Origin: a virus
Taxonomy: Duplodnaviria; Caudoviricetes
Length of the DNA: 64,000 nt
Reading direction: 5' to 3' (one strand)
IMG/VR virus record: IMGVR_UViG_3300032312_001958
This document shows, piece after piece, positions 5,563-55,343 of this stretch. The position numbers and the translations under genes were made by a program. Each line of letters begins with the position of its first letter. The first letter of the stretch is position 1. Below the pieces are notes generated by a model. That model ran no database searches. It saw only the letters and a program-made list of their open reading frames with translations, and was not told the origin of the DNA.

Positions 5563-5574
5563 ATTTAAATTATT

Positions 5575-5649
5575 TTATAACCACCAAATTGAGGTTTTCC
5601 ATTCTTCTCTATCAGGATGTTCGTGTACTGAAAGTTTATCTAAAAATAA
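5575..5649 (-). pseudogene. Probable 3' gene remnant (LFLDKLSVHEHPDREEWKTSIWWL*)
   Basis: Start-less 24-codon open stretch with protein-like composition, in an otherwise gap-free operon. Confidence 0.4.
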
Positions 5650-6258
5650 TTATTTATTTTTTTCGAAAACAGAAAATCCATTTCTTTCGTCTAGTTTATC
5701 ATAAAGGGTAGTGAAATTATTACTATCTAATATTTCTTGTCTTATTTTATTTGTTTTTAAAATATTACTATCATCTAAAACAACAATTCGAGTTCTATCT
5801 TTTAACTTTACCCATTCAGGGTAAGTTGTATATTCCCCACCATCTAAAATTAATAAATCAATTTTTTCAGGTAATTTATCCAATATATTCTCAGCAGTTT
5901 TTAAATAATTCAAATCTTTTTCGTAGTATAGTTGAGCGTGGGCATCTGATTGAAAATCAATCGTTGAGTGGTCAAACCAATACACGTCGTCTAAATCTAT
6001 AATTCTACCATTTAATAAATTAACATAAGATGAATATGGTTCTAAAAATTTTTTAGCAATTTCGTACATTTCTGGATACAATTCTAAGGAATAGAATTCT
6101 TTAGTTTCACTTTTATCAATTAAAGACTGTATAACGCACATTGTTGAACCTTCTCCATTCCATGTACCTATTTCTACAATTGTTTTAACGTCTTCCCTAC
6201 TTGATAGATTATATATTAAGTCTCCCCAAGGTGTGCCTATATTAATTTGACCTGCCAT
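5650..6258 (-). CDS. Class I SAM-dependent methyltransferase (Methyltransf_24-like)
   Basis: IVEIGTWNGEGST motif I, LLILDGGE, VVLDD. Confidence 0.8.
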   Translation of the reverse strand: MAGQINIGTPWGDLIYNLSSREDVKTIVEIGTWNGEGSTMCVIQSLIDKSETKEFYSLELYPEMYEIAKKFLEPYSSYVNLLNGRIIDLDDVYWFDHSTIDFQSDAHAQLYYEKDLNYLKTAENILDKLPEKIDLLILDGGEYTTYPEWVKLKDRTRIVVLDDSNILKTNKIRQEILDSNNFTTLYDKLDERNGFSVFEKNK

Positions 6259-6276
6259 TTTTTAGTATATATTTTT

Positions 6277-6969
6277 TTATTCATTGGATAAGAATTGAGA
6301 ATACTCATCTTGATTGTCTTTAATCCAATTATGTTTGAAATTAAATATAGGATTTTCAGGTAATTCAATTCCTAAGATTGGATAAAATTCTTTTCTTACA
6401 AATATCATATTTCCGGTATGACAGACAAATTCATATCCTTTTTGCTTCCCTAAATTATACATCGCATAAAAAGATGTATTGAATTCTTTGTCATAGTTAT
6501 CGTTATTTTGATAATTTTTGAGTGGATTTATTCCTGAGTTTATTTCAATAATAACAATAATTGGTTTATAATTTTTTAGTGAGTCCCAATATTTATAATC
6601 TTCTGAATCAGTATCAATAGATAGTAATGTAAATTCTTCAGGTATTGTAGTTTCAGAAAGAATTTGGTCTAAACTATTATTATTTAAATCCACGTATTTA
6701 TTTATAGGGATTATATTTGGGTATTCTTTTGAGGTTTCTAATAATTCAATAAATTTACTTTCATCACCTTCAATCATCACAGAATTGAATCCTTCTTTTA
6801 CTAATTTTAGAGTGTTACTAGCATTTTTTCCGTCCCAAGCACCAAACTCACAACACCACTTATCTTCTAAATTCAATCGTTTCAAAAGTTCTTCAATAAC
6901 CCCATCTTCACCGTTTTGAGAGTTTATATTTTTATTATAGAGTTCATAAAAAAAATTTTCGTATTTCAT
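6277..6969 (-). CDS. FkbM-like methyltransferase
   Basis: SQNGEDGVI, CEFGAWDGKNASNT, LLSIDTDSEDY, IIIEIN. Confidence 0.8.
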   Translation of the reverse strand: MKYENFFYELYNKNINSQNGEDGVIEELLKRLNLEDKWCCEFGAWDGKNASNTLKLVKEGFNSVMIEGDESKFIELLETSKEYPNIIPINKYVDLNNNSLDQILSETTIPEEFTLLSIDTDSEDYKYWDSLKNYKPIIVIIEINSGINPLKNYQNNDNYDKEFNTSFYAMYNLGKQKGYEFVCHTGNMIFVRKEFYPILGIELPENPIFNFKHNWIKDNQDEYSQFLSNE

Positions 6970-6983
6970 AAGTCATCAATTAA

Positions 6984-7604
6984 TTATTTTTTTTTAAAAA
7001 AACCTTCACCAAAGTTACCTCCCCACCAAAATTGGTCAATACAGGTAAATCCATTGTCATTTAAGAACCTTTGGATATCCTCAAACAAAGGACACCCTTG
7101 ATATAGTTCATCGGAGTTTATCTCAACAACCAAATAATCAATATTTTTTAATGTTTTAATTGAGCCTTTAAGTACCTCTAATTCGTAACCCTGAACATCG
7201 ATATTCATCATATTATATAGAGAATAATCAAAATCCAAATCATCCAATCTATCCATCTCAACAACTTCTTTTTTATCAAAAACTATACTCGGAAATTGTC
7301 TTGTGTGTAGTTTCGGTTCCAAAATAGATGACGACATCCCATTATTATTCGATTCAACGAACATCTCAATTTGTTTTTTTTCATTACCTAAAGCCTTTTT
7401 AACTAAAATGGTTCCGTCTTCATTACCAACTTTTTCAACTAAAGTTCTAAAATTAGAGTTTAGTGGTTCAAAAAAAATTTTATTCTTCGCACCTAATTCA
7501 TTATATAATTCATTTTCTTGCCCAAAATGGGCACCAACGTGAATTACACCTTTTATTTGCACATCGTGTTTCATAATGAAACCTTTAAATTCTAAGTTAT
7601 TCAT
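6984..7604 (-). CDS. FkbM family methyltransferase
   Basis: VIHVGAHFGQE, FEPL, NIDVQGYELEVLKG, LVVEIN. Confidence 0.9.
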   Translation of the reverse strand: MNNLEFKGFIMKHDVQIKGVIHVGAHFGQENELYNELGAKNKIFFEPLNSNFRTLVEKVGNEDGTILVKKALGNEKKQIEMFVESNNNGMSSSILEPKLHTRQFPSIVFDKKEVVEMDRLDDLDFDYSLYNMMNIDVQGYELEVLKGSIKTLKNIDYLVVEINSDELYQGCPLFEDIQRFLNDNGFTCIDQFWWGGNFGEGFFKKK

Positions 7605-7639
7605 ACCATCTTTTTTTTGTTATTTTATTTTTTTTGATA

Positions 7640-8413
7640 TTAGATTAATTTTCTATCTTCTAAAAATTTATTTCCATAAAGAATATCTTTATGCTTTTCT
7701 AAGATTTTCGCAGCATTAGTATACATCAAGTCACTATGTAAGTTATGATTTTTCTGTCTTGAGGTCCCCCAATTTAAGTCTGATTCATAATCTATCCAAT
7801 ACAAACCTGAAACTTTATTTAATTCTTTAAACGCTCTCATTGAGATGTCCATATCATCATAATGTAACGGGGCGAAATATTCATCTAAATAATTTAATTT
7901 AACTACGTCACTATAATCATACATTAAAGGACCTCTGTTACCATATTCTCTTGCATAAAAAATATCTCTTTGAGATGAACTTTTTGGTGAGACATCTATA
8001 TAATTAATTTGTTTTGTATCCTCATTATATATGTTATTATGGGCAACAAAAGAAGTAACTGCAAAAACGTCATTAAAATTTTGAAATGGTTTTAACATCC
8101 TCAAGTCAAAATCTTTTTCTTTTACAACCATGTCATCTTGAATTAAAATAACGTAATCGTTTTCAACTAATTTTAATCCTGCGTTATTTGCTTTAGTTTC
8201 AAAAACGTCGTCCGTATAAACGTAATCAACCTTTTTATTATATTTTTTTAAAATATTTTTGGATAAACTTTCACTATTATCCGTACAACCATCAAACACA
8301 ACAATTATTTGTTCGTTTTTATCCGACAAGTTATCTACCAATCCTTGACAAACTTTTTCAATTAAAAAGTCTTTATTATGAACTGTTAATACAGTTGTAA
8401 TTTTTTTACTCAT
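7640..8413 (-). CDS. Glycosyltransferase family 2
   Basis: VLTVHNK, VFDGCTDNS, ANNAGL, IQDD, YDDMD. Confidence 0.85.
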   Translation of the reverse strand: MSKKITTVLTVHNKDFLIEKVCQGLVDNLSDKNEQIIVVFDGCTDNSESLSKNILKKYNKKVDYVYTDDVFETKANNAGLKLVENDYVILIQDDMVVKEKDFDLRMLKPFQNFNDVFAVTSFVAHNNIYNEDTKQINYIDVSPKSSSQRDIFYAREYGNRGPLMYDYSDVVKLNYLDEYFAPLHYDDMDISMRAFKELNKVSGLYWIDYESDLNWGTSRQKNHNLHSDLMYTNAAKILEKHKDILYGNKFLEDRKLI

Positions 8414-9081
8414 GGTTTGTATATATTATAACTAATTTGATTATCAAAGTAATTAGAAAAATTTAATTTATGTTTAATTATTAAATTTGTTAAAATACTT
8501 TGGTCATGTCTGTGGAATTGCCAATTTTCAAAATTTTTACCTAATTTAGAATCTTCATCATCTACAATCTGTTTTACACTACAATATTTCAAATATTCAT
8601 TCATTAAATTAGTGTTATCATCAGTTTTTTTAACAATAAAAAACCCAGCTTCAATTTGTGCGGTATTATGGTAGATTTCTGAATCACAATCCATCAATAT
8701 AAAACAATCTCTTTTAGTGTGATATTTCTGAGGAGTTCTGTAACCACCCCAGTTACTAAAATAATAATCGTTACTTTGAAAAAAGTCTAAAACATCATTA
8801 TAGTTTATATTAAGTATGTCTCCCGCGTCAGTGTAAATTACTATGTCATTTTGTTCTATAATATTAAAAGTATCTAAAATAATCTTAGGTTTCCAAAGCC
8901 AATATCCATCACCTACTTTACAATCTAAAACTTCTTTATTTTCCTCATAAAATTTATCTTTTTTTATATTTTCAGAATGGTATGGTAATACTATAAAACC
9001 TTTTTCTTCGTAGTATTTTTTTAAAAAATTTTCACGAACTCTAAATTTTTCGTTAGTGTAAAAACAAATATATACTTTCAT
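8410..9081 (-). CDS. Putative GT-A glycosyltransferase (GYWLWKP / HRHDQS type)
   Basis: GYWLWKPKII, YTDAG, HRHDQSILT motifs, typical of proteins in glycan-synthesis clusters. Confidence 0.6.
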   Translation of the reverse strand: MKVYICFYTNEKFRVRENFLKKYYEEKGFIVLPYHSENIKKDKFYEENKEVLDCKVGDGYWLWKPKIILDTFNIIEQNDIVIYTDAGDILNINYNDVLDFFQSNDYYFSNWGGYRTPQKYHTKRDCFILMDCDSEIYHNTAQIEAGFFIVKKTDDNTNLMNEYLKYCSVKQIVDDEDSKLGKNFENWQFHRHDQSILTNLIIKHKLNFSNYFDNQISYNIYKP

Positions 9082-9085
9082 ATTT

Positions 9086-10015
9086 TTAATATTTCATTTC
9101 GTTTAATAAAAATTTTACAGCGTTATCATACGTAGATGTAAAATTATTGTAAAGGTCATAAGATTGTTGAATGTTAAAATTATCCAAGTATTTTTTAATT
9201 TCGTACATAAATGAGTCAAAGTCTGACGTATATGTATGTTCAGGAATTAACTCATTTTCAGTTTTAATTGGTAAATGTTCATATAAAAATAATCTACACC
9301 CATTGGCAGTAGATTCCCCCAACCTAACAGGGTATTCTAACCAAACAGGAGTGGCGGATTCCGATAAAGTTATTTTACTATTTTTATAATAGTTAAAACA
9401 TTGTTCGGGACTAATAACTCCAACACTATCCCAACAATTAGTTAGTACGTTATATTTTTGACTAAGAATACCTAGTGCTCTGTTTACATTAGGTCTATTA
9501 TTGATGGTACCAAAATAACAAATATCAATATTTTTTTCAGAAACAAATTCTTCAGGTTTTTCTGATAATGAACAAGGTAAATAACAAAATTTTAAATTTT
9601 CAATTGGTTCTGACGAAAAATTTAATAAATTAACTCCTTCTTCACCTGACCTCATGTATTCAGGTCCATGATTTGTTACAAAATCATTAACTATTTTTTC
9701 ATCAAAAATGTTACTTTTATAAGCGCAAATAAAATTAACATCTCTTCTTTTTTCAGATAATTCCTTCAATTTTGGTATATCAAAACATCCCCAAATAATG
9801 TGATGTTTAATATTTATTGTGTTATAGTAATCTATATTTGATATTAAATAATTTAATGATAACTCTCCAAAAACTATATCGTATGATTTTTTAGTACATT
9901 TAGTTATATCTAAAACCCATTCCGTTTCTCCTATTTTTGAAAATGCGTTATAAAACCCTTCAATCTTTCTATGATTGAAATTTTCTTTACCTTCACCTAA
10001 AATTAATATATTCAT
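9086..10015 (-). CDS. Putative GT-B glycosyltransferase (CgeB/Glyco_trans_1_2-like)
   Basis: DICYFGT..NR, YYKNSKITL, RLGESTANGC. Confidence 0.6.
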   Translation of the reverse strand: MNILILGEGKENFNHRKIEGFYNAFSKIGETEWVLDITKCTKKSYDIVFGELSLNYLISNIDYYNTINIKHHIIWGCFDIPKLKELSEKRRDVNFICAYKSNIFDEKIVNDFVTNHGPEYMRSGEEGVNLLNFSSEPIENLKFCYLPCSLSEKPEEFVSEKNIDICYFGTINNRPNVNRALGILSQKYNVLTNCWDSVGVISPEQCFNYYKNSKITLSESATPVWLEYPVRLGESTANGCRLFLYEHLPIKTENELIPEHTYTSDFDSFMYEIKKYLDNFNIQQSYDLYNNFTSTYDNAVKFLLNEMKY

Positions 10016-11244
10016 ATTTTTTCTGATATTTTTTTTGATTGTATTACATTATCTTCTATTGAACAATAGGTCCATGAACCATACCTACCTATTGAATAAA
10101 TTCCGTTTGGATTCCACTCGTTTGACCACTTTTCATATTTTTCATTTGAGTATTTGTTAATATGTACATATGCGGGATTTAAAACCAACATTTTATGTTC
10201 TAAAACATTGTGTCCATTAATCAACCCTACTTTGTTTAAATCGGATAAAACTGACTCAAATAATATTTCTTCATTAACTTCCTCATGTGAGGGTAAGCCA
10301 ATTTCAACATATATACTCATCTTATCTGTTGACATGATATTGTCGTAAAATCCAACTCTGTAAAAAATTTCATCTCCCGGATAATAAATCCAGTGACTAT
10401 TAACCACTGACGGTTTATCAAACCCTATGTTAAAAACAACAACTTTGTTATGGTTAAAGTTTTCTGTACTTTCTCCATTAATTTCTAACAATTTTTTAAA
10501 TGGTATTGTAGATACCAATTTATCAAAGGTGTACGAGTTATTATTTGTTTTTAAAATTTTATTTTTTAAATCTATACGATTTACTCTTTCATTAATTTTA
10601 ATTTTATCTTCAGGAATATCTTTAAGAATTGATTTAATAAATTCAAACGCCCCTTCTTTTGGGTAGATAAAATTATCGTTATAAGATTTAAATGATTTAC
10701 CACCTAATCCACTCATAAATTCATTAAAATTTATGTTTGGAAAAAATCTTTTCATACAATCATAATCCAATAAATCTAAATTACATGAATATAATTTTTC
10801 ATTATATGGGATTATAAATTTGTTTGAAATTGATTCTCCTAAGTTACTATAGACATAATCTTTAAAGTTATTCACTTCTTTACTTTTTTCACAAAAAAAT
10901 AAATCCTTTAAACAATCTATAAATTCTTTTTTCTCTAATTGATGTATGTTGTATTGAAACGGGAAATCAATGTAACTATTATTATAAAAAATTTTAGATA
11001 TTTTTTTAACACTTAAAATTTCACATTCAATATTTGAAGTTAATTTGTCTTTTATTTCTTCATTATTAAAGTGAAAAAAATGACCTGAGTAATCCCAAAC
11101 AAAGTTCTCAGTTTTTATTGTTCTACAGTAACCCCCAACCTCTTCTTCTGATTCTAAAACTAAATAATCTCTGTCTTTTAAATATGATGCTAAAGATAAT
11201 CCTGAAATACCTCCACCAATTATTATAATTTCTTTATGTGTCAT
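10012..11244 (-). CDS. FAD-dependent oxidoreductase (protoporphyrinogen oxidase / UDP-galactopyranose mutase-like)
   Basis: IIGGGISGLS, GGYCRT, DYSGHFFH, PYNEKLY, GRYGSWTY. Confidence 0.85.
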   Translation of the reverse strand: MTHKEIIIIGGGISGLSLASYLKDRDYLVLESEEEVGGYCRTIKTENFVWDYSGHFFHFNNEEIKDKLTSNIECEILSVKKISKIFYNNSYIDFPFQYNIHQLEKKEFIDCLKDLFFCEKSKEVNNFKDYVYSNLGESISNKFIIPYNEKLYSCNLDLLDYDCMKRFFPNINFNEFMSGLGGKSFKSYNDNFIYPKEGAFEFIKSILKDIPEDKIKINERVNRIDLKNKILKTNNNSYTFDKLVSTIPFKKLLEINGESTENFNHNKVVVFNIGFDKPSVVNSHWIYYPGDEIFYRVGFYDNIMSTDKMSIYVEIGLPSHEEVNEEILFESVLSDLNKVGLINGHNVLEHKMLVLNPAYVHINKYSNEKYEKWSNEWNPNGIYSIGRYGSWTYCSIEDNVIQSKKISEKI

Positions 11245-11245
11245 T

Positions 11246-12019
11246 TTATATTATAATCCAATTTTTATTATAAATGTCTTCAATATCTTTTGGACCTGAT
11301 GGACCAAACCAAAAACTAGGAGCAATAATTAATCCATTATTTTGATTGAGGTAAGACCCCCACCAACTAAAACTACTATTAGATATTATATTATTATCAC
11401 TTTGTACCATTAAATTTAAATCAAAAATTTCAGAATTAAACTCAGAAAAAAATATATTGTCTCCTTTAAATTTTTTTTTACACCATTCAATATCATCTGA
11501 AATTATAACAAAGATTGAATCCTCAATTTTATTCATTGAGACATTATAGTACCCTAAAGGACAAGAAATATGATAGTTAGGATTGTTTAAATAATCTCCT
11601 CGTCTAACGTGAACAGATGTTATTTTTTTATTATTTCTAATACTATTCAAAAATGAGGTAACTTGGTTTTTGACATCTTCATCAAAATAAAATAGATTTT
11701 TAATATCATCTTTATATTCTTCAAAATATTTTTCACTTTGGAAATATCCGTCTAAATATATATTATTTTTGATTGGTAATTTTGTATAACTAAATTTTGG
11801 TTCAAGGTACCCTTCTAATTCTGAAAAATTAATTTTTTTGTTAGGTATTTTTTTAAAAAAATTATCTTTATACCTATTTGACTCAAATCCTTGAGCTGGA
11901 GTATAACAGTCCTCAAAGTCAAAAAAACAATCAGTATTTACATCTTTACTTAACGCAAAAGTTGCGGCGATTTGAAACATTTGGTTACCTAATCCACCCT
12001 TTAATTTACAACTTATCAT
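11246..12019 (-). CDS. Alpha-1,2-fucosyltransferase (GT11)
   Basis: GGLGNQMFQ, GYFQSEKYF, VHVRRGDY, SNSSFSWWG. Confidence 0.92.
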   Translation of the reverse strand: MISCKLKGGLGNQMFQIAATFALSKDVNTDCFFDFEDCYTPAQGFESNRYKDNFFKKIPNKKINFSELEGYLEPKFSYTKLPIKNNIYLDGYFQSEKYFEEYKDDIKNLFYFDEDVKNQVTSFLNSIRNNKKITSVHVRRGDYLNNPNYHISCPLGYYNVSMNKIEDSIFVIISDDIEWCKKKFKGDNIFFSEFNSEIFDLNLMVQSDNNIISNSSFSWWGSYLNQNNGLIIAPSFWFGPSGPKDIEDIYNKNWIII

Positions 12020-12719
12020 ATTTAGTCTTACTTCTAATTTTTAGGGCAATATCATTAACTAATGATAAATCTATTTTATGGTCATTTAAAGGATTTGTGT
12101 CATTATATATGTAATTTATCTCAGGCATAAAATGGTAATGTTCTTCCCCTGACATTTCAAGCATCGGAAACATAAATGATAAATCTCCAGTTACTTTCCA
12201 ATAATTTCCATTCTCATCTTTTAAATCTTCTTGTTTTATTTTTCTCCATAAAAACGCTCTCCAAGTTCTCATATGAGTCGCGGTAAATCTTGAGTTTCTT
12301 AAATCATTAAAATTCTCTTGTCTTTGTGAAAAACCGTTAACTCCATTCGGATATTTAAATGACCCGTTTGCAATCCAAACATTTTCATTTTTATATACAT
12401 TATTAACTCGCTCAAACACTTTAGAATCGGGTAACCAATCATCACCATCAACCTCTATTACTATTTCATTATCTCCAATATTTGTATAATTTCTTAAAAC
12501 ATTATCGTAATTACCAGGTTGATATAACTTTGTTTTATTTTCAATCAGAATAAATCTATCATCATTTTTTATTATTTCTTTTATAATATTAACTGAATTA
12601 TCCGTAGATAAATCATCAGTAATATAACATTTAAAATCTTTGAAAGATTGTGACATTATACTAAATAGAGATTTTTGAATATAGTTCTCACAATTGTATA
12701 CAGTTGTTAATATAACCAT
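12006..12719 (-). CDS. Glycosyltransferase family 2
   Basis: YNCENYI, DDLSTDNS, VDGDDWL. Confidence 0.88.
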   Translation of the reverse strand: MVILTTVYNCENYIQKSLFSIMSQSFKDFKCYITDDLSTDNSVNIIKEIIKNDDRFILIENKTKLYQPGNYDNVLRNYTNIGDNEIVIEVDGDDWLPDSKVFERVNNVYKNENVWIANGSFKYPNGVNGFSQRQENFNDLRNSRFTATHMRTWRAFLWRKIKQEDLKDENGNYWKVTGDLSFMFPMLEMSGEEHYHFMPEINYIYNDTNPLNDHKIDLSLVNDIALKIRSKTKYDKL

Positions 12720-12721
12720 AA

Positions 12722-13468
12722 TTAAAAAACTTTAACTCGTTTATTTAAATAGGATTTGTAATCCTCAATATGTTCATTTTCACTCATTAACACATAAAGG
12801 GTTAATCCATTTTTTTTATTAAAATCACTTAGTCTTTCGGCCCTTAATTTTTGTTTGTATAGATGTAAATTAATACCTAAAAATTTATAATGTAACATTT
12901 TTAAATCTTCTCCATTATATATTTTTACTTCACCAATTGGGTTACAGGTATGGGCTCCAAAAGAATAATTTATTTCTTTTATTTTATTACAGTCAAACAT
13001 CATCATTTTATCTAACACAGAAGTTCTGACCCCATATTTAATTTTTTCTAAAAAGTTATCTTCTGAATTTGGACTATACTCTAAATCTGCGACCATATGA
13101 AAACCATTTGGTTTAAACAGAGTAAATCCTTCGTTTTTAGATTTTATTAAAAAATCATTCATATTTGGATGGTATAGGAACTCATCAGAGTCCCCAATAA
13201 TTACGTAATCTGCAACACCAACACTATTTTTCCAAACTTGATTTTTAACTAAAACATGTATTCCATCATTAAATTGATTATTAGTTTCAAAGTTAACGAC
13301 TTCGACATTATTAAATGATTTGGCAACTAAAATGCTATTGTCTGTCGAACCATTATCAACAATTGTTATTTTTTCACAAAATGTTGAGTAGTATTTTATT
13401 AAATGAGGTAAAATTTCCTCTTCATTAAAACATAAAAAAAATGCGTGTACTATAGGTTTTTTATTCAT
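12722..13468 (-). CDS. Glycosyltransferase family 2 (Glyco_tranf_2_4-like)
   Basis: FNEEEIL, VDNGSTDNS, GDSDEFL, GAH, LHYK. Confidence 0.85.
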   Translation of the reverse strand: MNKKPIVHAFFLCFNEEEILPHLIKYYSTFCEKITIVDNGSTDNSILVAKSFNNVEVVNFETNNQFNDGIHVLVKNQVWKNSVGVADYVIIGDSDEFLYHPNMNDFLIKSKNEGFTLFKPNGFHMVADLEYSPNSEDNFLEKIKYGVRTSVLDKMMMFDCNKIKEINYSFGAHTCNPIGEVKIYNGEDLKMLHYKFLGINLHLYKQKLRAERLSDFNKKNGLTLYVLMSENEHIEDYKSYLNKRVKVF

Positions 13469-15461
13469 TATTCATTAATTTAATCCATTTATCTAAAATT
13501 TCTTTGTTTGTTAGAGTTACATCAGGATTATTAGTTACTTCATTTCCGTAAAATTTAACACCTGTTAACTCACATTCATCTTTAACTAAAGTTGCAACTT
13601 CACTGTTAGATGACAAGTATGCTCTACCTATCATATCATATATTTCTTGTTTATTTTCTAAAAATCCTTTTAAAACTACTTTATCACTTAATAATGGTCT
13701 AACTTTATTTTCAAAATATTCGGTATTAGGTTCCCCAAAAAGATAAACTTTTTGACACCCATCAGATAACGCCCTTTCAATTGAAACGTGAGTTTGTTTA
13801 TTTTCATCAAATGAGCCAATAACTCCAGCAATTAATTCTAATCCTTTTTTATCTTTTTTAATTAATTTTTGCTTTAAATTAGGGATTATTGAGTATTCTC
13901 CATTATATAAGTTATGGTATTCTCTATGACTATCATTCAAAAATACCACTTCGTCCCAAAATTGGGTAATTTTTCCAACTTCAAATAAATCCTTTTCGTG
14001 ACAAGAAAGTATTACTTTTCTTACATTAGGTCTTGACGGTAAATTTATAAAATGTGTAATTAATATGTCACTTGTGTCAAGTTTTAAATTATCTAATTTA
14101 TCTGATTTACATTTATTTAAGTGCCAATCATGGGGACCATAAAATGTTACATCGTAACCTAATTTATTTAATTCGTTTGTTAGATTAATAAAAGCAACTG
14201 TAGAACCACCTCGATTAGACCACCCACTTACAATTTTTATTTTTTTTATTTTTGGTCTTGGTACGTTAATCGATAACTCTGGAATTTCTATTTTTTCAAT
14301 ATCAATTGAGTAGTATTTAGATAGACTATCTTTTATCATCTCATCAAATACTACATATTTAATGACACTTGGGTCAATGACAGGAGTTTCTAAAATTTCT
14401 TGAAAATCAGTTATTACAGGTATTAATTCAGTATTTTGATAAAGTCTACTAATATGATTGTATACTTCTTTTTTATTAAAAATAATTAAGTCAAAACTAA
14501 CATCTTTAATTTTATATAATGTATTTGGTTTTGAAACTTCTTTAACATTTCCTGAATTAAAAATCCATTTCCCGTCCCCAATTCTTAAACCTGGAGGTTC
14601 ATTAATTGAGGTAAAATTAATCTTATTTCTTAAAGTTTCCTCTATGGTTTCTGGTTTAATATTTGAAGAAACTGTTATGTTATAATTGTCATTTAGTAAT
14701 TGATTAACAACTAAATAAAAATACTTTTCAAAATCTTTAGACTCAAAAGTGTCAAAACATATAATGGCCCTTAAAATTTCTCCTTTTCTTCTTACTTTTT
14801 GTAAAGTTACAGGTAAATTATCTTTATATTTTTCAGAAAATTGAATTCTGTTTTTTTCCCATTTGTCATTTGTCATTCCAATTGATTTGTGGTTAACCCT
14901 AATTAAAGTAGTTACACCATTTTTCACTCCCGATATAAAATTTTCAAAACAAAAAGACACGTCATAAAAATGAAACCCCTCAAATTCAATATCAAATTCT
15001 TTTTTAATTTTTGTTTTGTCAATACCAAAAAATAATCCATCAACAACTATAGTCTCTTCAATAACTTGATTTAAATCAGGTGAATATTCTGATAACCAAG
15101 TTTTACCTTCATGGGTATGTAAAACTTTACCATACATTTTTGACCTATCTTCCCACCACATACCACTTTGAGGAATGTGTTTAGTACCGGCAACTCCAAT
15201 AATACCAAATTCAGGGTTTCTTAAAAATAACTTAACTAATTTTTGTCCCCATTGTTTTGTTTCAACTGTAATATCATCATGACAAAAAACGATAATATCA
15301 TTTTCTGATTCTTGTAAGATTTCGTTATAAACAGTTGTTAAACCCTTTTCACCATTATTAACCTTTTCAATAATTTGAGCCTTAGGAAACCCACAAGATT
15401 TTTTAAGATATTCTTGAAATTCAGGGTCACTTTTTCTTGTACTATATCCAATTGTTATCAT
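13461..15461 (-). CDS. Multidomain glycosyltransferase (N-terminal GT-A Glyco_tranf_2_5-like; C-terminal GT-B-like)
   Basis: FCHDD, GIIGVAG, VVDGLF, FHFYDVSFC in the N-half; SGWSNRGGSTVAF and GSFDENK in the C-half. Confidence 0.75.
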   Translation of the reverse strand: MITIGYSTRKSDPEFQEYLKKSCGFPKAQIIEKVNNGEKGLTTVYNEILQESENDIIVFCHDDITVETKQWGQKLVKLFLRNPEFGIIGVAGTKHIPQSGMWWEDRSKMYGKVLHTHEGKTWLSEYSPDLNQVIEETIVVDGLFFGIDKTKIKKEFDIEFEGFHFYDVSFCFENFISGVKNGVTTLIRVNHKSIGMTNDKWEKNRIQFSEKYKDNLPVTLQKVRRKGEILRAIICFDTFESKDFEKYFYLVVNQLLNDNYNITVSSNIKPETIEETLRNKINFTSINEPPGLRIGDGKWIFNSGNVKEVSKPNTLYKIKDVSFDLIIFNKKEVYNHISRLYQNTELIPVITDFQEILETPVIDPSVIKYVVFDEMIKDSLSKYYSIDIEKIEIPELSINVPRPKIKKIKIVSGWSNRGGSTVAFINLTNELNKLGYDVTFYGPHDWHLNKCKSDKLDNLKLDTSDILITHFINLPSRPNVRKVILSCHEKDLFEVGKITQFWDEVVFLNDSHREYHNLYNGEYSIIPNLKQKLIKKDKKGLELIAGVIGSFDENKQTHVSIERALSDGCQKVYLFGEPNTEYFENKVRPLLSDKVVLKGFLENKQEIYDMIGRAYLSSNSEVATLVKDECELTGVKFYGNEVTNNPDVTLTNKEILDKWIKLMNNE

Positions 15462-16758: not shown

Positions 16759-17976
16759 TTATTTTAATAAACTGAAATAAAGTTCTTTTCTATCTTTTGT
16801 TACGTTATTTAAATCGTATGTTTTTGAAACTGTCTCGTATAATCTTTCACCTAAATCAACAATCATATTTGGATTATCGACTAATTTTTTGATGTGTTTT
16901 GACCAATCAGAATGGTTACGAGTCTCTTCAACCAATAAAGCATTACCGTCAACAAATTCACCATTTTTAAGAGCGTGTTTTAAATCAATTGTGTAAGGAC
17001 CAATATTAGATGCGATTAAAGCTTTCTTATAGAACCCTGCTTCAATAACCTTCAACTGTGACTTAACTCTATTAAAAATATGGTTTTTAATTGGCGCTAA
17101 AGATATATCAAATTTAGAATAATTCTTAGCATAAGATGTTGTTGGTAAGGTCCAAACTCTTCTATAACCCTCATTTAATTCGTTGAAGTAAGACTCATCT
17201 TTGAATTTCATAAGATGTGTTTTATACTCATCACCTACAGTCTTATAATTGTTTGTGAAAATTTCTTCATATTTCACCCAAACTGTTTCGTCAGGTCTAA
17301 TAGGTCTGACTTTTTTCTCACCTGTGTCTTTATTATACTCGGTCATACTACCACGTGTGTCAAATCCGCACAAGACATATTGAATTTTATCATTTAAACT
17401 ACCTAATTTACTTACCATTCCGTCTAAAAGATATAAGTCATGTAAGTGAGATGAACCTCCAAGCCACCCAACTCTGATTCTGTCCGATTCTAAAGTTTTT
17501 TCTTTAAACTGTGGTTCATTAGGGTCAATTGCGTTTGGTAATACTGAAACATTTTTATTTACTTTAGATACCTCAGATGCAAATACTGAAGTAGTTGTTG
17601 TTACATGTTTTGCAGCTCTTATCTGAGCAATAATTTTCTCATTTATTTTTTCTTGAAGAATAATAGTGTGTAGAGGATGTTCTTTTGTTGGTAACCAATA
17701 GTCGTCAATGTCACAAATAGTTACCACACCTTGTTTATTAAGTTTTTCAATCAACTCAACTGATTTTTCATAATCTTGACCAATTAGTCTATGAAAATGT
17801 ACTATATCGTACTTTTGCCAAAATTTATCATCATCGTAATTAATATCAAATTCTATATCTACATGAACTTCATTTGGATACAATTTTTGAAGACATACGT
17901 GAGGGTCAATCGACCTAAATTTACCTACACCACTTCTATCTGAAGGTAATACTAAAATATTAATTTTTTTACTCAT
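16759..17976 (-). CDS. GT-B glycosyltransferase
   Basis: DIDDYW, PNAID, GWLGGSSHLHDL, DISLAP, FNRVKSQLKVIEAG; start reassigned to ATG at 17976 (MSKKINIL). Confidence 0.8.
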   Translation of the reverse strand: MSKKINILVLPSDRSGVGKFRSIDPHVCLQKLYPNEVHVDIEFDINYDDDKFWQKYDIVHFHRLIGQDYEKSVELIEKLNKQGVVTICDIDDYWLPTKEHPLHTIILQEKINEKIIAQIRAAKHVTTTTSVFASEVSKVNKNVSVLPNAIDPNEPQFKEKTLESDRIRVGWLGGSSHLHDLYLLDGMVSKLGSLNDKIQYVLCGFDTRGSMTEYNKDTGEKKVRPIRPDETVWVKYEEIFTNNYKTVGDEYKTHLMKFKDESYFNELNEGYRRVWTLPTTSYAKNYSKFDISLAPIKNHIFNRVKSQLKVIEAGFYKKALIASNIGPYTIDLKHALKNGEFVDGNALLVEETRNHSDWSKHIKKLVDNPNMIVDLGERLYETVSKTYDLNNVTKDRKELYFSLLK

Positions 17977-17983
17977 AGAAACA

Positions 17984-18012
17984 ATTATAGTTATTAAACT
18001 ATAACATTTCAA
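17984..18012 (-). promoter_or_regulatory. Sigma70-like early/middle promoter of the long leftward operon
   Basis: TTGAAA-17 nt-TATAAT on minus strand, with 7 nt between the -10 box and the ATG at 17976. Confidence 0.65.
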
Positions 18013-20652: not shown

Positions 20653-20697
20653 AATGTTTTTACCTATAAATACTTTGATTATTGTATTTATTAAAAG

Positions 20698-23658
20698 ATG
20701 AGTCAACAGAATATTAATCAATATGTCTTTAACAAATGGAAATTAAACCCAAGTTGGAATAATTTGGATATGTCATTGGCGTCCGATGAAACAGATTTTA
20801 ATGAGGAAGTTGTTTTTTCAACTCAATTAATTGGAATAAATAATGGTAATAGATTACCAATTTATTTTGATTTAAATAATTCAAATTCGTCCCAAAAACC
20901 TACCCTTAATTATGGGGACTATCTTACAGGTAATACTTTAGTATCATTAAATTATTATAATCCAAATAATGAAAATTTATCTTGTTTTACAGGTGATAGT
21001 TTATGTGATATAGGTTTAACAGGTATTGATAATGGATTAGTTCCTGAAATGTCAGGTGAGACAATATATTTTAGTATGGGGTTATATACAGGTACCACAA
21101 AATGGGACAGGTATCACTTTGACAGAAGGACTAAATTAATACCAATAAAATCGTATACTACAAATACTAATCGTTTTTCAGGTAATACAAAAGAAACAAT
21201 TTATAATATTGTATCAAAAACTGGTGATACAACAGGAGTTTATAATCAACTATATGGTGGGTTTAACCAAGGATTTTTTAAATTATTTGGATATGATTAT
21301 GAAACATTTCCAAATAGATGTAATAAAGGATGGTCAGTTGAGATGTTACTACGAGCAAGACAGGAGGACCAGTTTTACCCAACATCTGCAGAAACCACAT
21401 TAAATTTAACATATTCAGGTAACGAAAATACCTTTTTTTATTTGGGGACAAGAGCTGAAAATAAATTCTATCATCACGCGTCTGGGTCACCTGAATCTGA
21501 TTCAGGGTACACAAGAGTTACTGAAGTATTATCAGAATGTTTAAAAACATGTGCTTGTTCAAACTCTGGAGTAACAAACTCAAGATGTTTAGATGATATA
21601 TATGAACCATTAGTTTATACTTCACAACATAATGTAAATTGTAATTGTGGATGTTCGGAAAATGTAGTTGTAAATCCGGATAAAGACCCATTACTTGACT
21701 CAATGTCAAATACATTTTCATTAAGACTATCAGGTGACACTAAAAATCCGATAGTCTGTGTGAAAGTTTTAAAATTTACAGGAGGTTGCGAGACTACAGG
21801 TAGTTGTGAAACAACAGGTATAACATATACCACGGGATACACAATAAGTGAGTATTGTTCAACTAATAGGATATTTGAATATTGTGCTAGTAGTACTGAT
21901 TATATCAACAAAGAACATTGGTTTTTAATTGATTGTGTTTGGGAAAGAAACTCGTATTTTGACACTTGTGATTTATTATATCGTGGAGGTTTAGATTCAA
22001 TAACAAATACATATTATGTAAACTCTTTAGCCGGTAATTCTGTTAGTTTAATTACCGTACCATATACCCAATCAGGAGCAACTCCGGCAGAACAAGTTGA
22101 GATTGTTAATCTAAATGAGGAATGGTTAATTGAGAAGGATTATAGGCTAGGGTCTTTAAAAATATATGTTAATGGTCGATTGTTTTATGTAATTAATGGA
22201 TTTGAAGAAGTAATACCTCGAGGTTTAAATACTGAAAAAGAAAAACAAATTGGGGTTCCATTTAATATTTCATGGGGAGGGGGAACACAAGGATTGAGAG
22301 AAAGTTTAACGTTTAAATCTTGTTCACCTAGTGATTTTATTTCAGGATTATATGTTAATGACTTTAACACCATTCTTGGAAATAGTAATGAAGAAAATTT
22401 GTTAAAGTCATTTGTTGATACCCATAATTTTAATACGGTATATTATTATGATTTAACTGGAATTTTAGATAATAATATACAAATAGATAACTTAAAAAGT
22501 TTTAACACGTCAATCAGATTATCCGGAGTAACGACAATTGGAGGTATTGGGGGTAGTTACCAAACATTAGCGGGTTCGGGGACGACAGGTAATAATTCAA
22601 GATTATATTATAATACGGGATGTACTGAAGATAGTCAGAAATTTGATGTGTTAAATTTGGAAAATGAGTTTTGGAATTATAACAATCCTGGAACTGTTGA
22701 TTTCGCAACTTACTATGGATATTTACAATCAGTAAATTCATCAACAACATTAACTTTTGATTCATATATTGGTCAAATTGATGACCCAACTTCAGCTTAT
22801 ACCCCAACACAAATTGCATCTAATTTAGTTTCAGAATTAGATAGAATATTGGTCGCATGTTACATTACAACTAATCAATTCACAGGGTCAACTAACTATG
22901 GGTTGAATACAGTTGATGAGGAATTAATACTAATTGGTGACGCCGCTATAAGTCAAAATAAAGTTCAGGATGTGATTATTATATTCCATGGAGGTAATTC
23001 ATACATGTATAATTATTTTAATGAATTTGGTTTCCAAGAAGCGTTCAATAATTTCAAAGAATCGTATGACAACTGGAATAACTCTTCCAAATTAGGTATT
23101 AATCTTAAAGGGTATTTTATTTATGGTTATCAACAAGTTAAGAATATTACACAAGTAAGTTCAGGGTCAAGTATTGGTTATTTTGAATATCAACAAGACC
23201 CTGAATGTATGCCAAATCAAACATTATCTGGAACATCATTGTCCGCATTAACGACTAACATATATATTGAACCTCAATTTGGGGGGTCATTTGATGGCGC
23301 AATTTCACAATTTAGAATGTATACCGAACCATTAACATACCCTGAAGTAGTTCATAATTTTGACATACTTAAAGGTCAATGGGAATTGTTTGACTATAAA
23401 TGTCCTAGTTGTTCTGATATTGTAATTAATGATATAATCGGAACTCAATCCGGTACGGATATTATTTTTAGTTCAGAGTTTTTCTCAGGAAATACATTTA
23501 ATTTATATTATTACAAAGATTCGGGAGAACCAAGATATGTTGTTACTGAAAATGAAACTTTTCCGTATACCATGGACACAACTTTGGTCCCAAATTGCTG
23601 TGGTAATAATTTTTATTTTTATATTATAGAATTAGACCAAACATTCCTTTACACATAA
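20698..23658 (+). CDS. Large Cys/Thr/Gly-rich virion protein; LamG/concanavalin-like fold with an inserted TIM-barrel-like domain
   Basis: WSVEMLLR, LKIYVNGRL, FDGAISQFRMYTEPLTYPEV (LamG-like); insert begins GLYVNDFNTILGN. Confidence 0.6.
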   Translation: MSQQNINQYVFNKWKLNPSWNNLDMSLASDETDFNEEVVFSTQLIGINNGNRLPIYFDLNNSNSSQKPTLNYGDYLTGNTLVSLNYYNPNNENLSCFTGDSLCDIGLTGIDNGLVPEMSGETIYFSMGLYTGTTKWDRYHFDRRTKLIPIKSYTTNTNRFSGNTKETIYNIVSKTGDTTGVYNQLYGGFNQGFFKLFGYDYETFPNRCNKGWSVEMLLRARQEDQFYPTSAETTLNLTYSGNENTFFYLGTRAENKFYHHASGSPESDSGYTRVTEVLSECLKTCACSNSGVTNSRCLDDIYEPLVYTSQHNVNCNCGCSENVVVNPDKDPLLDSMSNTFSLRLSGDTKNPIVCVKVLKFTGGCETTGSCETTGITYTTGYTISEYCSTNRIFEYCASSTDYINKEHWFLIDCVWERNSYFDTCDLLYRGGLDSITNTYYVNSLAGNSVSLITVPYTQSGATPAEQVEIVNLNEEWLIEKDYRLGSLKIYVNGRLFYVINGFEEVIPRGLNTEKEKQIGVPFNISWGGGTQGLRESLTFKSCSPSDFISGLYVNDFNTILGNSNEENLLKSFVDTHNFNTVYYYDLTGILDNNIQIDNLKSFNTSIRLSGVTTIGGIGGSYQTLAGSGTTGNNSRLYYNTGCTEDSQKFDVLNLENEFWNYNNPGTVDFATYYGYLQSVNSSTTLTFDSYIGQIDDPTSAYTPTQIASNLVSELDRILVACYITTNQFTGSTNYGLNTVDEELILIGDAAISQNKVQDVIIIFHGGNSYMYNYFNEFGFQEAFNNFKESYDNWNNSSKLGINLKGYFIYGYQQVKNITQVSSGSSIGYFEYQQDPECMPNQTLSGTSLSALTTNIYIEPQFGGSFDGAISQFRMYTEPLTYPEVVHNFDILKGQWELFDYKCPSCSDIVINDIIGTQSGTDIIFSSEFFSGNTFNLYYYKDSGEPRYVVTENETFPYTMDTTLVPNCCGNNFYFYIIELDQTFLYT

Positions 23659-23693
23659 TTTAATTGTAGTATTTTTTGGATAAAAATATTAAT

Positions 23694-24938
23694 ATGAAAA
23701 TTTTTATCCAAATTGCGTCTTATCGAGACCCACAATTAATACCAACAATTAAGTCCGCATTAGAAAATGCTAAACATCCTGAAAATTTAGTTTTTGCAAT
23801 CGCAAGACAATTTTACCATGAAGATGGGTTTGATAATTTAGACGAATACAGAAATGATGATAGATTTAGAATTTTAGATATACCTTATGAGGAATCAAAA
23901 GGTGCATGTTGGGCTAGAAATCAAATACAACAACTTTATCAAAAAGAAGAGTACACTCTTCAAATAGATTCTCATATGAGATTTGCGGAAAATTGGGATG
24001 TTGAAATGATTGGGATGATTAAACAATTACAAAAGAAAGGACATAAAAAACCTTTATTAACAGGATACGTACCATCCTTTGACCCTGATGATGACCCTAA
24101 CTCAAGAGTAATGGAACCATGGAGAATGGTATTTGATAGGTTTATACCTGAAGGTGCTGTGTTTTTCTTACCTGAGGTAATACCTGGATGGCAAAATATG
24201 ACAGAACCAGTACCTGCAAGATTTTATTCTGCACATTATTGTTTTACTTTAGGTAAATTTTCAAAAGAAGTTCAACACGACCCTGAATTTTATTTTCATG
24301 GGGAAGAAATATCAATTGCCGCTAGAGCTTATACCCATGGATATGATTTATTTCATATCCATAAAATTTTAATTTGGCATGAATATACAAGAAAGGGTAG
24401 AACTAAACAATGGGATGATGATAAAGATTGGGTGAGTAAAAATGATTATTGTCACAAGAAAAATAGGAGTTTATTTGGGATGGATGGTGAAGAACCAATG
24501 AACCATGGAAAGTATGGATTTGGTAAAAAAAGAAGTTTAAAAGACTATGAAAAATATTCAGGATTACTTTTTTCCAAACGAGCCATCCAACAATGGACAA
24601 TAGATAAAAACTATCCTCCTAATCCGTATAATTTTAATACTGAAGAAGAATGGATGAATTCGTTCTCATCAATATTTAAACATTGTATTGATTTACAATA
24701 TTCACAAGTACCTGAAAAAGATTACGATTTTTGGGTTGTTGCATTTCATGATGAAAATGATGAAACACTCTTTAGAAAAGATGCCGATAAATCTGAAATT
24801 AATCGTATGATGAATGACCCAGATGGTTACGTTAAAGTATGGAGAGAATTCAATATGGTTAAACAACCAAAATATTGGGTAGTTTGGCCTCATTCTGAAT
24901 CAAAGGATTGGTGTGAAAGAATATCAGGTAATTTATAA
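23694..24938 (+). CDS. GT60-like polypeptide N-acetylglucosaminyltransferase (Skp1 GlcNAc-transferase family)
   Basis: IFIQIASYRD, GACWARNQIQ, LQIDSHMRFAENWD, FHGEEISIAARAYTHGYD, WHEY; ATG at 23694. Confidence 0.8.
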   Translation: MKIFIQIASYRDPQLIPTIKSALENAKHPENLVFAIARQFYHEDGFDNLDEYRNDDRFRILDIPYEESKGACWARNQIQQLYQKEEYTLQIDSHMRFAENWDVEMIGMIKQLQKKGHKKPLLTGYVPSFDPDDDPNSRVMEPWRMVFDRFIPEGAVFFLPEVIPGWQNMTEPVPARFYSAHYCFTLGKFSKEVQHDPEFYFHGEEISIAARAYTHGYDLFHIHKILIWHEYTRKGRTKQWDDDKDWVSKNDYCHKKNRSLFGMDGEEPMNHGKYGFGKKRSLKDYEKYSGLLFSKRAIQQWTIDKNYPPNPYNFNTEEEWMNSFSSIFKHCIDLQYSQVPEKDYDFWVVAFHDENDETLFRKDADKSEINRMMNDPDGYVKVWREFNMVKQPKYWVVWPHSESKDWCERISGNL

Positions 24939-26556: not shown

Positions 26557-26596
26557 AAATCATCATTATTTAATATATTAATAAAAAACTATAAAC

Positions 26597-28550: not shown

Positions 28551-28551
28551 T

Positions 28552-32180: not shown

Positions 32181-32214
32181 TTGTTAAAAACAATGTAATT
32201 ATATATAAAAGATT

Positions 32215-32538: not shown

Positions 32539-32547
32539 CGATATTGT

Positions 32548-32576
32548 TTGACTTATATTTTTTATTTGATTAAACT
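32548..32576 (+). promoter_or_regulatory. Sigma70-like promoter of DNA polymerase
   Basis: TTGACT-17 nt-TAAACT. Confidence 0.65.
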
Positions 32577-35433: not shown

Positions 35434-35435
35434 TA

Positions 35436-55019: not shown

Positions 55020-55343
55020 ATGGCACTTCAATACTACAACAGATATAAAGGATTTTTAGTTAATGGAGTTCAAAATATTGTTCCTTACGTTAGGTTAACT
55101 TCTAAATCTTCTGATAAAAGATACATTTACAGGTCAGGAAGGACAAGATTAGACAAAGTCTCACAACAAATATACGGTACTCCTTATTTTGGTTGGTTAA
55201 TTTTACAGGCAAACCCACAGTTTGGTGGGTTAGAAAATAATATACCCGATGGATACTCGTTAAGAGTACCATTTCCTTTAGACACAAGTTTATTAGATTA
55301 TAAAAATCAGTTAGACAATTATTTTTTCTATTATGGCAGATAA
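55020..55343 (+). CDS. Baseplate wedge / LysM-like (gp53 / tail X-like) protein
   Basis: RLDKVSQQIYGTPYFGWLILQANP...IPDGYSLRVP. Confidence 0.75.
   Translation: MALQYYNRYKGFLVNGVQNIVPYVRLTSKSSDKRYIYRSGRTRLDKVSQQIYGTPYFGWLILQANPQFGGLENNIPDGYSLRVPFPLDTSLLDYKNQLDNYFFYYGR

Follow-up and report, generated by a model that had tools for sequence, protein, structure and literature searches.

An over-represented [ST]-G-x-[ST] motif in a LamG-like protein and the tail sheath of a jumbo-phage clade: a candidate O-glycosylation acceptor

The window analysed here is a stretch of 64,000 nucleotides from a virus of the Caudoviricetes (IMG/VR record IMGVR_UViG_3300032312_001958). It encodes a 986-aa protein in which the motif [ST]Gx[ST] recurs, a tail sheath, several glycosyltransferases (GTs) and a block of sugar-metabolism genes (Table 1). 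Structural modelling indicates a LamG/ConA-like jelly roll for the 986-aa protein, interrupted by an inserted domain. The AF2 model of aa 1-545 (pLDDT 70, pTM 0.72) was aligned by VIA-align to CBM and lectin jelly rolls with Z of 9.0-9.9 over 170-190 residues, and the tailspike of cyanopodophage Pan3 could be superposed in the same Z range. Foldseek returned weak matches only, in the same fold class as the jelly roll, with nothing below E = 0.001 in the PDB. In the shorter family members (about 640-710 aa), aa ~551 joins aa ~831 directly, and aa 831-986 aligns with their C-termini. The latter region also matches Laminin_G_3 weakly (E = 0.01; 16.4 bits with a cut-off of 27.6; profile positions 108-150 of 151). 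The Atlas feature matches all carry Laminin_G_3, with scores below 0.9 that make them a lead only. Pfam and PHROGs gave no family for the whole protein, and Pfam gave none for the inserted domain. A tblastn search of cultured phages found no homologue; more than 1000 homologues were found on contigs of uncultured phages. The protein is probably exposed on the virion.

Table 1. Positions of the genes and domains discussed in the text (observed vs expected numbers of [ST]Gx[ST] sites where given).
Feature	Coordinates	Strand	Remarks
986-aa modular LamG/ConA-like protein	20698..23658	+	19 [ST]Gx[ST] sites, 16 of them [ST]GxT
Main part of LamG jelly roll with large beta-hairpin insertions, aa 1-545	20698..22332	+	12 sites vs 1.6, P = 1e-7
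Domain inserted in LamG fold, aa 546-830	22333..23187	+	5 sites vs 0.9
Closing LamG strands and Cys-rich tail, aa 831-986	23188..23658	+	2 sites
GT60-type polypeptide GlcNAc-transferase homologue, directly downstream of the 986-aa gene	23676..24938	+	PF11397 E = 4e-65; phrog_24687 E = 2e-172
417-aa glycosyltransferase, six genes upstream of the LamG gene	16759..18012	-	phrog_7162 E = 1e-42
666-aa GT2_5-family glycosyltransferase with long C-terminal extension	13461..15461	-	PF13712 E = 2e-29
Variable sugar-metabolism block	4585..13468	-	Pfam
Tail sheath, 1059 aa	41267..44446	+	Phage_sheath_1 and 1C at aa 779-1047; phrog_23 E = 1e-57
Sheath segment aa 213-345, outside the conserved sheath core	41903..42301	+	7 of 9 sheath sites
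2218-aa tail/baseplate-region protein	55333..61989	+	weak excess, 8 vs 3.0

The initial annotation had counted 19 sites by hand in the 986-aa protein, with a rough expectation of about 3. The exact count returned the same list, at aa 77, 98, 119, 131, 161, 175, 269, 290, 345, 373, 379, 459, 609, 627, 640, 729, 822, 844 and 930, and composition-shuffled controls gave 2.85 ± 1.6 sites (z = 10, Poisson P = 2e-10). The sites are dispersed along the protein and not in tandem, as had been described, and their spacing is partly regular, with 21 residues between aa 77, 98 and 119 and also from aa 269 to aa 290. [ST]GxT alone was found 16 times vs 1.46 expected, and in an exhaustive scan of a-b-x-c patterns SGxT ranked first (9 vs 0.7) and TGxT second (7 vs 0.76). 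The half-motifs were at chance level, with 11 vs 12 for [ST]Gx[^ST] and 9 vs 12 for [^ST]Gx[ST], and the two flanks of the Gly were coupled (hypergeometric P = 5e-5). More than 200 homologues and the sheath family showed the enrichment again; in this jumbo phage and its relatives the over-representation is 7- to 11-fold in the lectin-like protein and about 3-fold in the sheath. The motif behaves as a unit enriched by selection.

The logo of the family sites refined the motif to hydrophobic-[Ser/Thr]-Gly-x(not Pro)-Thr-hydrophobic, with the hydrophobic residues at -1 and +4. Pro was all but excluded at x (0.03x), the Thr:Ser ratio at position 4 was 84:16, and Asp and Glu were depleted at -2 and -1. 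Proteoglycan xylosylation sites consist of Ser-Gly-x-Gly with acidic neighbours. The suggested resemblance to such sites did not fit, as only the Ser-Gly dipeptide is in common, whereas position 4 of the phage motif is Thr (16 of the 19 sites; 84% of the family sites), -1 is hydrophobic and acidic residues are depleted. The codons used for Ser, Thr and Gly vary from site to site, so that the signal lies at the protein level and a DNA-level motif was ruled out. Base composition was also ruled out, the GC content being 33-35% in motif-poor loci and 26% in one motif-rich locus, as was amino-acid composition: the homologues P0197 and P0203 match the G/S/T content of the query, yet carry 1 and 3 sites.

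For the sheath, which has large extra domains, about nine sites lying mostly in insertion domains had been noted, and this was confirmed: nine sites were found vs 2.9 in the shuffled controls (P = 0.003), and seven of these are in aa 213-345, where 1.2 are expected (P = 3e-4). Among sheath homologues (n = 120) the mean is 10.1 sites vs 2.8, with positions partly conserved and partly turned over; outgroup sheaths are not enriched (1 vs 1.7 and 3 vs 1.2). In the AF2 model of the sheath (pLDDT 61), the confidently modelled sites are at hairpin turns or strand ends, and three sites fall within or beside low-confidence stretches. DSSP assignment of the aa 1-545 model likewise placed the sites at strand starts and hairpin turns, several of them in low-confidence stretches.

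Five related IMG/VR contigs (G001, G002, G003, G006 and G007) were examined whole. Enriched families made up roughly 10-20 of about 540 in the contigs of four relatives and the window, and outside them the O/E was 1.08 for 524 ORF groups from the window and G001-G003. The unrelated enriched families in the same phages include the sheath and groups of proteins about 398, 750-800 and 500 aa long; Pfam and PHROGs were also negative for four enriched families besides the 986-aa protein. Summed over its remaining 51 ORFs, the window has 18 sites vs 15.2; its 1630-aa beta-rich protein is at chance (3 vs 2.9), and the DNA polymerase, stated to have about one site, has 1 vs 0.7 expected. Recurrence of the motif had also been claimed for the ORFs at 30627 (2 vs 1.9), 32215 (1 vs 0.4) and 50126 (3 vs 2.9), which proved to be at chance level. 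For the ORF at 55333 the claim held as far as a weak excess (P = 0.009), which was not significant over 54 ORFs and did not replicate in its orthologues (observed/expected 3/2.7, 6/3.2, 2/3.4 and 7/4.1). Among 23 T4 virion and control proteins there was no general enrichment, with gp18 at 0 vs 1.3. A generic trait of beta-rich virion proteins of phages was ruled out by the T4 proteins, the outgroup sheaths and three proteins encoded in the window (1630, 672 and 517 aa). The LamG homologue of contig G006 carries 3 sites vs 1.3 expected, a chance level, but its sheath and other families are still enriched; a loss of the motif throughout the genome, which would have suggested a lost enzyme, was not seen in the marine lineage. 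Across the five contigs, the motif densities of different families showed no joint rise or fall. From these counts, the enrichment is confined to one phage clade and a few protein families.

In a tree of more than 100 homologues of the 986-aa protein, the motif-rich state was ancestral and collapsed to chance level at least two times independently, with the fold kept, and sites turned over. Because at least two independent lineages contain homologues that share the fold but carry just 0-3 sites, the comparison indicates that the LamG fold does not require the motif. For example, P0155, which is 36% identical and has the same domain order, has 0 sites, and P0156 at a similar distance has 17; the Gly of the motif is mostly swapped for Asn or Glu in P0155. 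A site is present in some member in 61 alignment columns. Sporadic lineage-specific sites amount to 51 instances vs 14-33 for five composition-matched control patterns, and the sites q119 and q379 are present in 29 of 32 family members. In LamG-type family proteins (52-59% identity) the inserted domain has 4-6 sites, whereas homologues of it that are distant or stand alone have 0-2, which indicates that it gained the motif only in these phage proteins.

About ten ORFs of the window have GT-family matches, several of them below the Pfam cut-off, in addition to GDP-mannose 4,6-dehydratase (GMD) and methyltransferases. The sugar block consists of GMD, FkbM and other methyltransferases, GT2 genes, GT11 and a flavin-dependent oxidoreductase of the amine-oxidase family. 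BLAST against the relative G001 matched GT11 and one GT2, with no match for GMD and the compared ORFs at 5650-11244; because these genes are unmatched in G001, the motif does not depend on most of the block. A co-occurrence of motif enrichment with specific GT genes was tested and did not emerge for the GT60 gene, which does not track the motif. Only 17 of 82 loci have it at a distance of up to 10 kb, and it is absent from the motif-rich contigs G001, G003, G006 and G009 (66-89% complete) and adjoins a motif-poor homologue (L026/L175), and GT60 was therefore ruled out as the required reader. The 417-aa GT is present in 71 of the 82 loci and in 5 of 5 contigs examined whole, motif-poor lineages included; the 666-aa GT is present in 60 of the 82 loci and again in 5 of 5 contigs, motif-rich or motif-poor. 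As both are found in all relatives, co-occurrence is uninformative on either as the reader. The two genes adjoin dUTPase and exonuclease genes. Searches of cultured phages with the 417-aa GT and the sheath gave distant relatives only, too far for co-occurrence. No GT was found to co-vary with motif density across the relatives. Of the proposal that the signal is read by the phage's own GTs, a selected and fold-independent motif stood and the GT co-variation did not.

We tentatively favour the explanation that the motif is an O-glycosylation acceptor on the folded protein, the modification itself being one that we infer; a structural turn is a close rival. One of the phage's own soluble GTs would add an O-glycan to the folded LamG protein and to the sheath, and the motif would serve as a "structural sequon": the enzyme would recognize the Gly-containing turn and the Thr after it. 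The reader would be other than the adjacent GT60, with the clade-wide 417-aa and 666-aa transferases as the likeliest candidates. It is possible, with more reservation, that an uncultured aquatic jumbo-phage clade O-glycosylates folded virion surface domains at hydrophobic-[ST]-G-x-T with a conserved phage GT as the reader, and that sites are gained and lost like those of the glycan shields of enveloped animal viruses.

Several results argue for O-glycosylation: the strong enrichment specific to the full motif with varying codons; the fold independence, repeated collapse and excess of sporadic sites; the presence of the motif in the inserted domain only in the phage context; the several unrelated enriched families together with the clade specificity; the heavy investment in glycan-synthesis genes; and the precedent of SgtA and the GSS/GTS fibres of the relatives, both described below. 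Other results count against it. No GT co-varies with motif density, the loss in G006 is protein-specific and thus unlike the loss of a shared enzyme, and the densities of different families do not change in step among the five contigs. Encoded beside dUTPase and exonuclease, the 417-aa and 666-aa GTs could equally serve DNA modification, and the logo fits a plain type II turn with a G1 bulge. If the motif is an acceptor, glycosylated virion proteins would be predictable from sequence across thousands of environmental jumbo-phage contigs, the many transferase genes of these phages would be accounted for, and a simple experimental handle would be available. O-glycosylation across the jumbo-phage clade, if true, would provide the first defined sequon for phage virion glycosylation.

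The type II beta turn with a G1 beta bulge is a classical motif of protein structure. Judged from the classification of beta bulges rather than from computed phi/psi angles, the phage motif may be such a turn, with Ser/Thr at turn position 2, a left-handed Gly and the beta-branched Thr as the first strand residue. It is plausible, if less so than O-glycosylation, that the motif is only a structural dialect of this turn that starts a strand with nothing attached, and that the hairpin-rich surface domains of the clade happen to reuse it. The likeness is a small polar residue followed by an obligatory Gly, with a hydrophobic residue before and a strand after, and it is consistent with the hairpin turns and strand starts or ends at which most confidently modelled sites lie in both AF2 models, and with the hydrophobic -1 and +4, the exclusion of Pro at x and the preference for Thr over Ser. 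The nearly family-wide conservation of several sites (q119 and q379), the frequent replacement of Gly by Asn in P0155, which would keep the turn geometry, the lack of a co-varying reader enzyme and the protein-specific loss in G006 point the same way. However, a generic motif would not be enriched 7- to 11-fold in a few families of one clade and stay at chance level in homologues elsewhere. Further beta-rich proteins of these phages are at chance, and so are the virion proteins of T4 and the sheaths of outgroups. The fold is also kept with 0-3 sites, entire sets of sites disappeared jointly on two or more occasions, the acquired inserted domain took up the motif in the phage setting only, and a neutral preference leaves unexplained why unrelated families of one clade share it. 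If the motif is a structural turn only, it would be a cautionary case of a clean 10-fold enrichment with turnover that arises without modification.

Less probably, the motif is recognized by something other than a GT, in phosphorylation, acylation, binding of an assembly factor or contact with a host surface polymer. The same comparative evidence of a selected, fold-independent and clade-specific motif would suit this, as it does not specify the reader and no GT co-varies. However, Pfam found no Ser/Thr kinase or acyltransferase in the 30 ORFs scanned at 317-30627, whereas genes for GTs and sugar nucleotides are abundant there. One could cite the post hoc choice of the motif by eye and the regular 21-residue spacing of some sites in favour of chance, amino-acid composition, a repeat at the DNA level or hidden tandem repeats, but these are very improbable given the Poisson P value, the top ranks in the exhaustive scan, the replication in homologues and the sheath family, the differing codons, the higher GC of motif-poor loci and the 1-3 sites of composition-matched homologues.

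To our knowledge, experimentally shown glycosylation of phage-particle proteins comes mainly from mycobacteriophages, and we know of no acceptor rule for it; a [ST]GxT sequon in phages was not found described in the literature. The SgtA enzyme of Clostridioides difficile adds O-GlcNAc to Thr or Ser in T-G-A-T-G and G-P-T-G peptides, its substrate being the collagen-like BclA3 (PMC7157674). The likeness to SgtA/BclA3 lies in the acceptor-type context T-G-x-T / G-x-T-G, to be compared with the 16 [ST]GxT sites of the 986-aa protein, and in a soluble GT encoded beside its surface-fibre substrate. Relatives of the phage have collagen-like fibres, (GSS/GTS)n ones among them. Glycosylation of the GPT repeats of Bacillus BclA is similar to that of BclA3. 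The fibre genes of the relatives contain hundreds of G-S-S/G-T-S triplets, which repeat the same local pattern; runs of at least 6 Gly-X-Y triplets are present only in the relatives G001 and G007 and in no protein of the window. Unlike the tandem collagen triplets and short peptides that are substrates of SgtA, the phage sites are dispersed at turns of globular beta-domains, and the residue after Thr is hydrophobic in the phage motif and Gly in the SgtA substrates.

Virion glycosylation by phage-encoded GTs was described in mycobacteriophages (Freeman et al. 2023, as cited in PMC12619734). As reported there, transferases encoded by a tailed phage act on the capsid and tail-tube proteins of that phage, which is the likeness; mass spectrometry showed the glycans, which sit on C-terminal extensions, whereas the present candidate motif is internal and dispersed and belongs to a different phage group. 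The major capsid protein Vp54 of chlorovirus PBCV-1 is glycosylated at atypical sequons (reviewed in PMC9614988). Virus-encoded GDP-sugar enzymes including GMD are common to PBCV-1 and the phage, and the non-canonical sequons of a PBCV-1 virion protein would have a counterpart in the candidate phage motif. The virus-encoded glycosylation machinery of PBCV-1 is cytoplasmic, with GDP-sugar enzymes such as GMD, and Vp54 is N-linked on Asn. PBCV-1 differs in that its glycosylation is N-linked, belongs to a eukaryotic virus and is experimentally established. GT60 (PF11397) is the family of polypeptide alpha-GlcNAc-transferases that includes Dictyostelium Gnt1 and the mucin transferase of T. cruzi, and the gene directly downstream of the 986-aa gene encodes a true member, whose presence does not track the motif. 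GT60 homologues are also found in Xanthomonas phage XacN1.

The window comes from a jumbo phage and is AT-rich (28-33% GC); its genes include long ones of the tail module as well as those for a sheath and a DNA polymerase. All 19 [ST]Gx[ST] sites that the initial annotation listed were exactly present in the ORF of the 986-aa LamG/ConA-like protein, and the proposed excess held against shuffled controls, with two thousand shuffles giving 2.85 ± 1.6 sites (z = 10) and an analytic expectation of 2.81 (Poisson P = 2e-10). When every residue-residue-x-residue pattern in this protein was ranked exhaustively, SGxT came first (9 observed, 0.7 expected) and TGxT second (7 and 0.76). The half-motifs were not enriched ([ST]Gx[^ST], 11 against 12 expected; [^ST]Gx[ST], 9 against 12), and permuted patterns such as [ST]xG[ST] remained at chance level. 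Among the 80 glycines, 19 had Ser/Thr at both -1 and +2, where 10.5 were expected (P = 5e-5). The signal in this protein is specific, and since codons vary from site to site, it lies at the protein level. The enrichment was carried by [ST]GxT (16 against 1.46) and [ST]GxS was hardly enriched (3 against 1.35); the true motif is [ST]GxT.

The sheath also carried the 9 sites counted initially (2.9 expected, P = 0.003), and 7 of the 9 were in aa 213-345, beyond the conserved core at aa 779-1047. The recurrence claimed for ORFs 30627, 32215 and 50126 was at chance (2 against 1.9, 1 against 0.4 and 3 against 2.9, respectively). ORF 55333 did show a weak excess (8 against 3.0), but its orthologues did not share it. 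The remaining 51 ORFs of the window pooled to 18 sites, with 15.2 expected.

Five related IMG/VR contigs (210-297 kb, 66-99% complete) were analyzed whole. In about 540 orthologous families from the window and three contigs, enrichment was limited to roughly 10-20, namely the LamG and sheath families, fibres, and groups with proteins of about 398 aa, 750-800 aa and 500 aa; the other 524 orthogroups together had 276 sites against 256 expected. The same families were enriched in two further contigs. The 120 sheath homologues listed (57-94% identical) averaged 10.1 sites against 2.8. No general excess was found in 23 T4 proteins, mostly of the virion (gp18, 0 against 1.3; gp34, 1 against 3.2), in the Microcystis phage Mel-JY01 sheath, which matches 94% of the query's length (1 against 1.7), or in the sheath of a 484-kb uncultured phage used as a control (3 against 1.2). 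Fibre proteins (contig G002, 68218-72240; contig G003, 112485-115811) contain repeats of about 35 aa (PLSGGTVTGATIFTDGLTANTISATTYQNLPATPF) with two motif matches each; here the tetrapeptide comes from repeats, a source distinct from the dispersed sites.

The 986-aa protein matched no Pfam or PHROG family and no homologue was found among cultured phages; more than 1000 homologues were present on uncultured phage contigs. For aa 1-551, an AlphaFold model with 32 homologues as input (pLDDT 70, pTM 0.72) superposed on LamG/ConA-like lectin jelly rolls over about 175 residues (Z 9-10); among these were a cyanopodophage tailspike, carbohydrate-binding modules and lectin subdomains of clostridial toxins. 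By itself, Foldseek returned no more than weak matches of the same fold class. Since short family members (about 640-710 aa) join aa ~551 directly to aa ~831, and the C-terminal 156 aa weakly match the end of the Laminin_G_3 model, the jelly roll is split by an inserted 285-aa domain. Homologues of this domain elsewhere stand alone (about 300 aa) or are fused to a papain-like peptidase C1 (P0074, P0191), and an Atlas structure search with it returned only a DUF7916-like hint. The inserted and C-terminal modules differ among family members (e.g., papain-like peptidase or LRR), a variability typical of exposed, host-facing proteins. The protein is a putative virion component. With its listed TTG start, a divergent 309-aa ORF shares 24 bases with the beginning of the 986-aa gene; the true start of the ORF is probably more internal, in which case the two genes would have a short divergent control region in common.

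Nearly all close homologues were enriched (z 4-11), and representatives at 50% clustering summed to 1206 sites against 274, with 0 to 24 in single members. Homologue P0155 had no site, yet it is 36% identical to the query across the whole N-terminal portion; at the query sites its Gly was mostly replaced by Asn or Glu and Ser/Thr were gone. Homologue P0156 (39% identity) had 17 sites, some of them new. P0197, P0187 and P0203 had only 1, 2 and 3 sites, respectively, although the Gly/Ser/Thr content of P0197 and P0203 matches the query's; the GC of their loci was higher than that of a motif-rich locus. A tree was built by maximum likelihood (quick search) with SH-aLRT support and a midpoint root for drawing only. 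Motif-rich sequences lay on either side of the root, and the motif had collapsed independently at least twice, in P0137/P0155, which branch from among sequences with 10-13 sites, and in P0187/P0197/P0203, sister to P0168 (12 sites). A 32-sequence alignment had 61 columns bearing a site in at least one member, 20 of them common to at least five sequences, and 51 sporadic instances compared with 14-33 for five composition-matched control patterns. The inserted domain had 4-6 sites within LamG-type family proteins (52-59% identity) and 0-2 in distant or stand-alone homologues.

The neighborhood of the 986-aa gene is rich in glycan genes (Table).

Table. Features of the window discussed in the text
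Feature	Position	Strand	Remarks
Glycan block	4585-13468	-	GMD, GT11 (fucosyltransferase family), GT2s, two methyltransferases (FkbM-type included); also a flavin-dependent amine-oxidase-family oxidoreductase
309-aa ORF	19792-20721	-	Divergent
986-aa protein	20698-23658	+	LamG/ConA-like
Inserted domain, 285 aa	22333-23187 (aa 546-830)	+	No assigned family
GT60/PF11397 enzyme	23676-24938	+	4e-65; directly downstream of the 986-aa gene
Transferase-like block	25025-30231		Variable; 3' of the GT60 gene, followed by a 517-aa protein with 17% Thr
Sheath	41267-44446
Two further large GT-like proteins		+
417-aa GT		-	phrog_7162
666-aa GT2_5 protein		-

BLAST matched neither GMD nor the compared ORFs at 5650-11244 to anything in the syntenic relative G001, so the glycan block looks mostly like a variable cassette. 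The GT60 gene encodes a polypeptide GlcNAc-transferase homologue and shares 45-48% identity with genes of Stenotrophomonas phages (CM1, RAS14) and Xanthomonas phages (XacN1, Xoo-sp13). In a relative (locus L002), an IS605 OrfB/TnpB (Cas12f-like) gene (13389-14606, - strand) lies two genes 3' of the LamG-protein gene.

The initial annotation proposed that the phage's own glycosyltransferases read the motif, but co-occurrence singled out no such enzyme. Of 82 loci, only 17 had GT60 at a distance of 10 kb or less. The gene was missing from contigs G001, G003, G006 and G009, where LamG or sheath proteins are motif-rich, whereas at L026/L175 it adjoined a homologue poor in the motif. Both the 417-aa and the 666-aa transferase occurred in all contigs analyzed whole and in nearly all checked loci with long enough flanks, motif-poor lineages included. 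In G006 the LamG homologue was at chance (3 against 1.3). Since the sheath (12 against 4.5) and other families there remained enriched, the collapse is protein-specific, and therefore not the genome-wide loss expected after losing an enzyme.

Confidently modeled sites in both structural models were mostly in hairpin turns or at first strand residues, and several others fell in low-confidence stretches. The family-wide logo has a hydrophobic residue at -1, Ser or Thr equally at 0, Gly, any residue but Pro, Thr at position 3 (84%), Ile/Leu or Arg/Lys at position 4 and then an alternating strand pattern. Judged from the logo, this sequence would suit a type II turn that carries a G1 bulge. The suggested analogy to Ser-Gly proteoglycan sites fails against the logo.

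The comparative data argue that selection acts on the motif as a whole, for some role other than folding, because it is fold-independent, collapses, was gained in an acquired domain and is common to protein families of one clade that are not related to each other. Tentatively, the most natural candidate role is O-glycosylation by a transferase of the phage, favored because of the glycan gene content. A precedent exists in C. difficile, where SgtA acts on Thr or Ser of T-G-x-T/G-x-T-G peptides as a glycosylating enzyme (PMC7157674). A close rival, nearly as probable, is that the motif is purely structural; no enzyme co-varies with the motif, its loss is confined to single proteins and a beta turn would give such a logo. 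Also counted toward O-glycosylation were collagen-like fibres reduced to (GSS/GTS)n in relatives. In G001 (IMGVR_UViG_3300020165_000007; locus L085), three adjacent fibre-like genes (755-4960, 5043-6590 and 6595-9516, all - strand) encode 314, 92 and 128 uninterrupted Gly-X-Y triplets, respectively, nearly all GSS, GTS or GES. Collagen-like fibres of the (Gly-Ser-Ser)n type, which lack Pro, are unusual, and their stability may depend on glycosylation. Three fibre genes of the canonical collagen-like kind occupy the syntenic region of the relative G007 (30629-43677).
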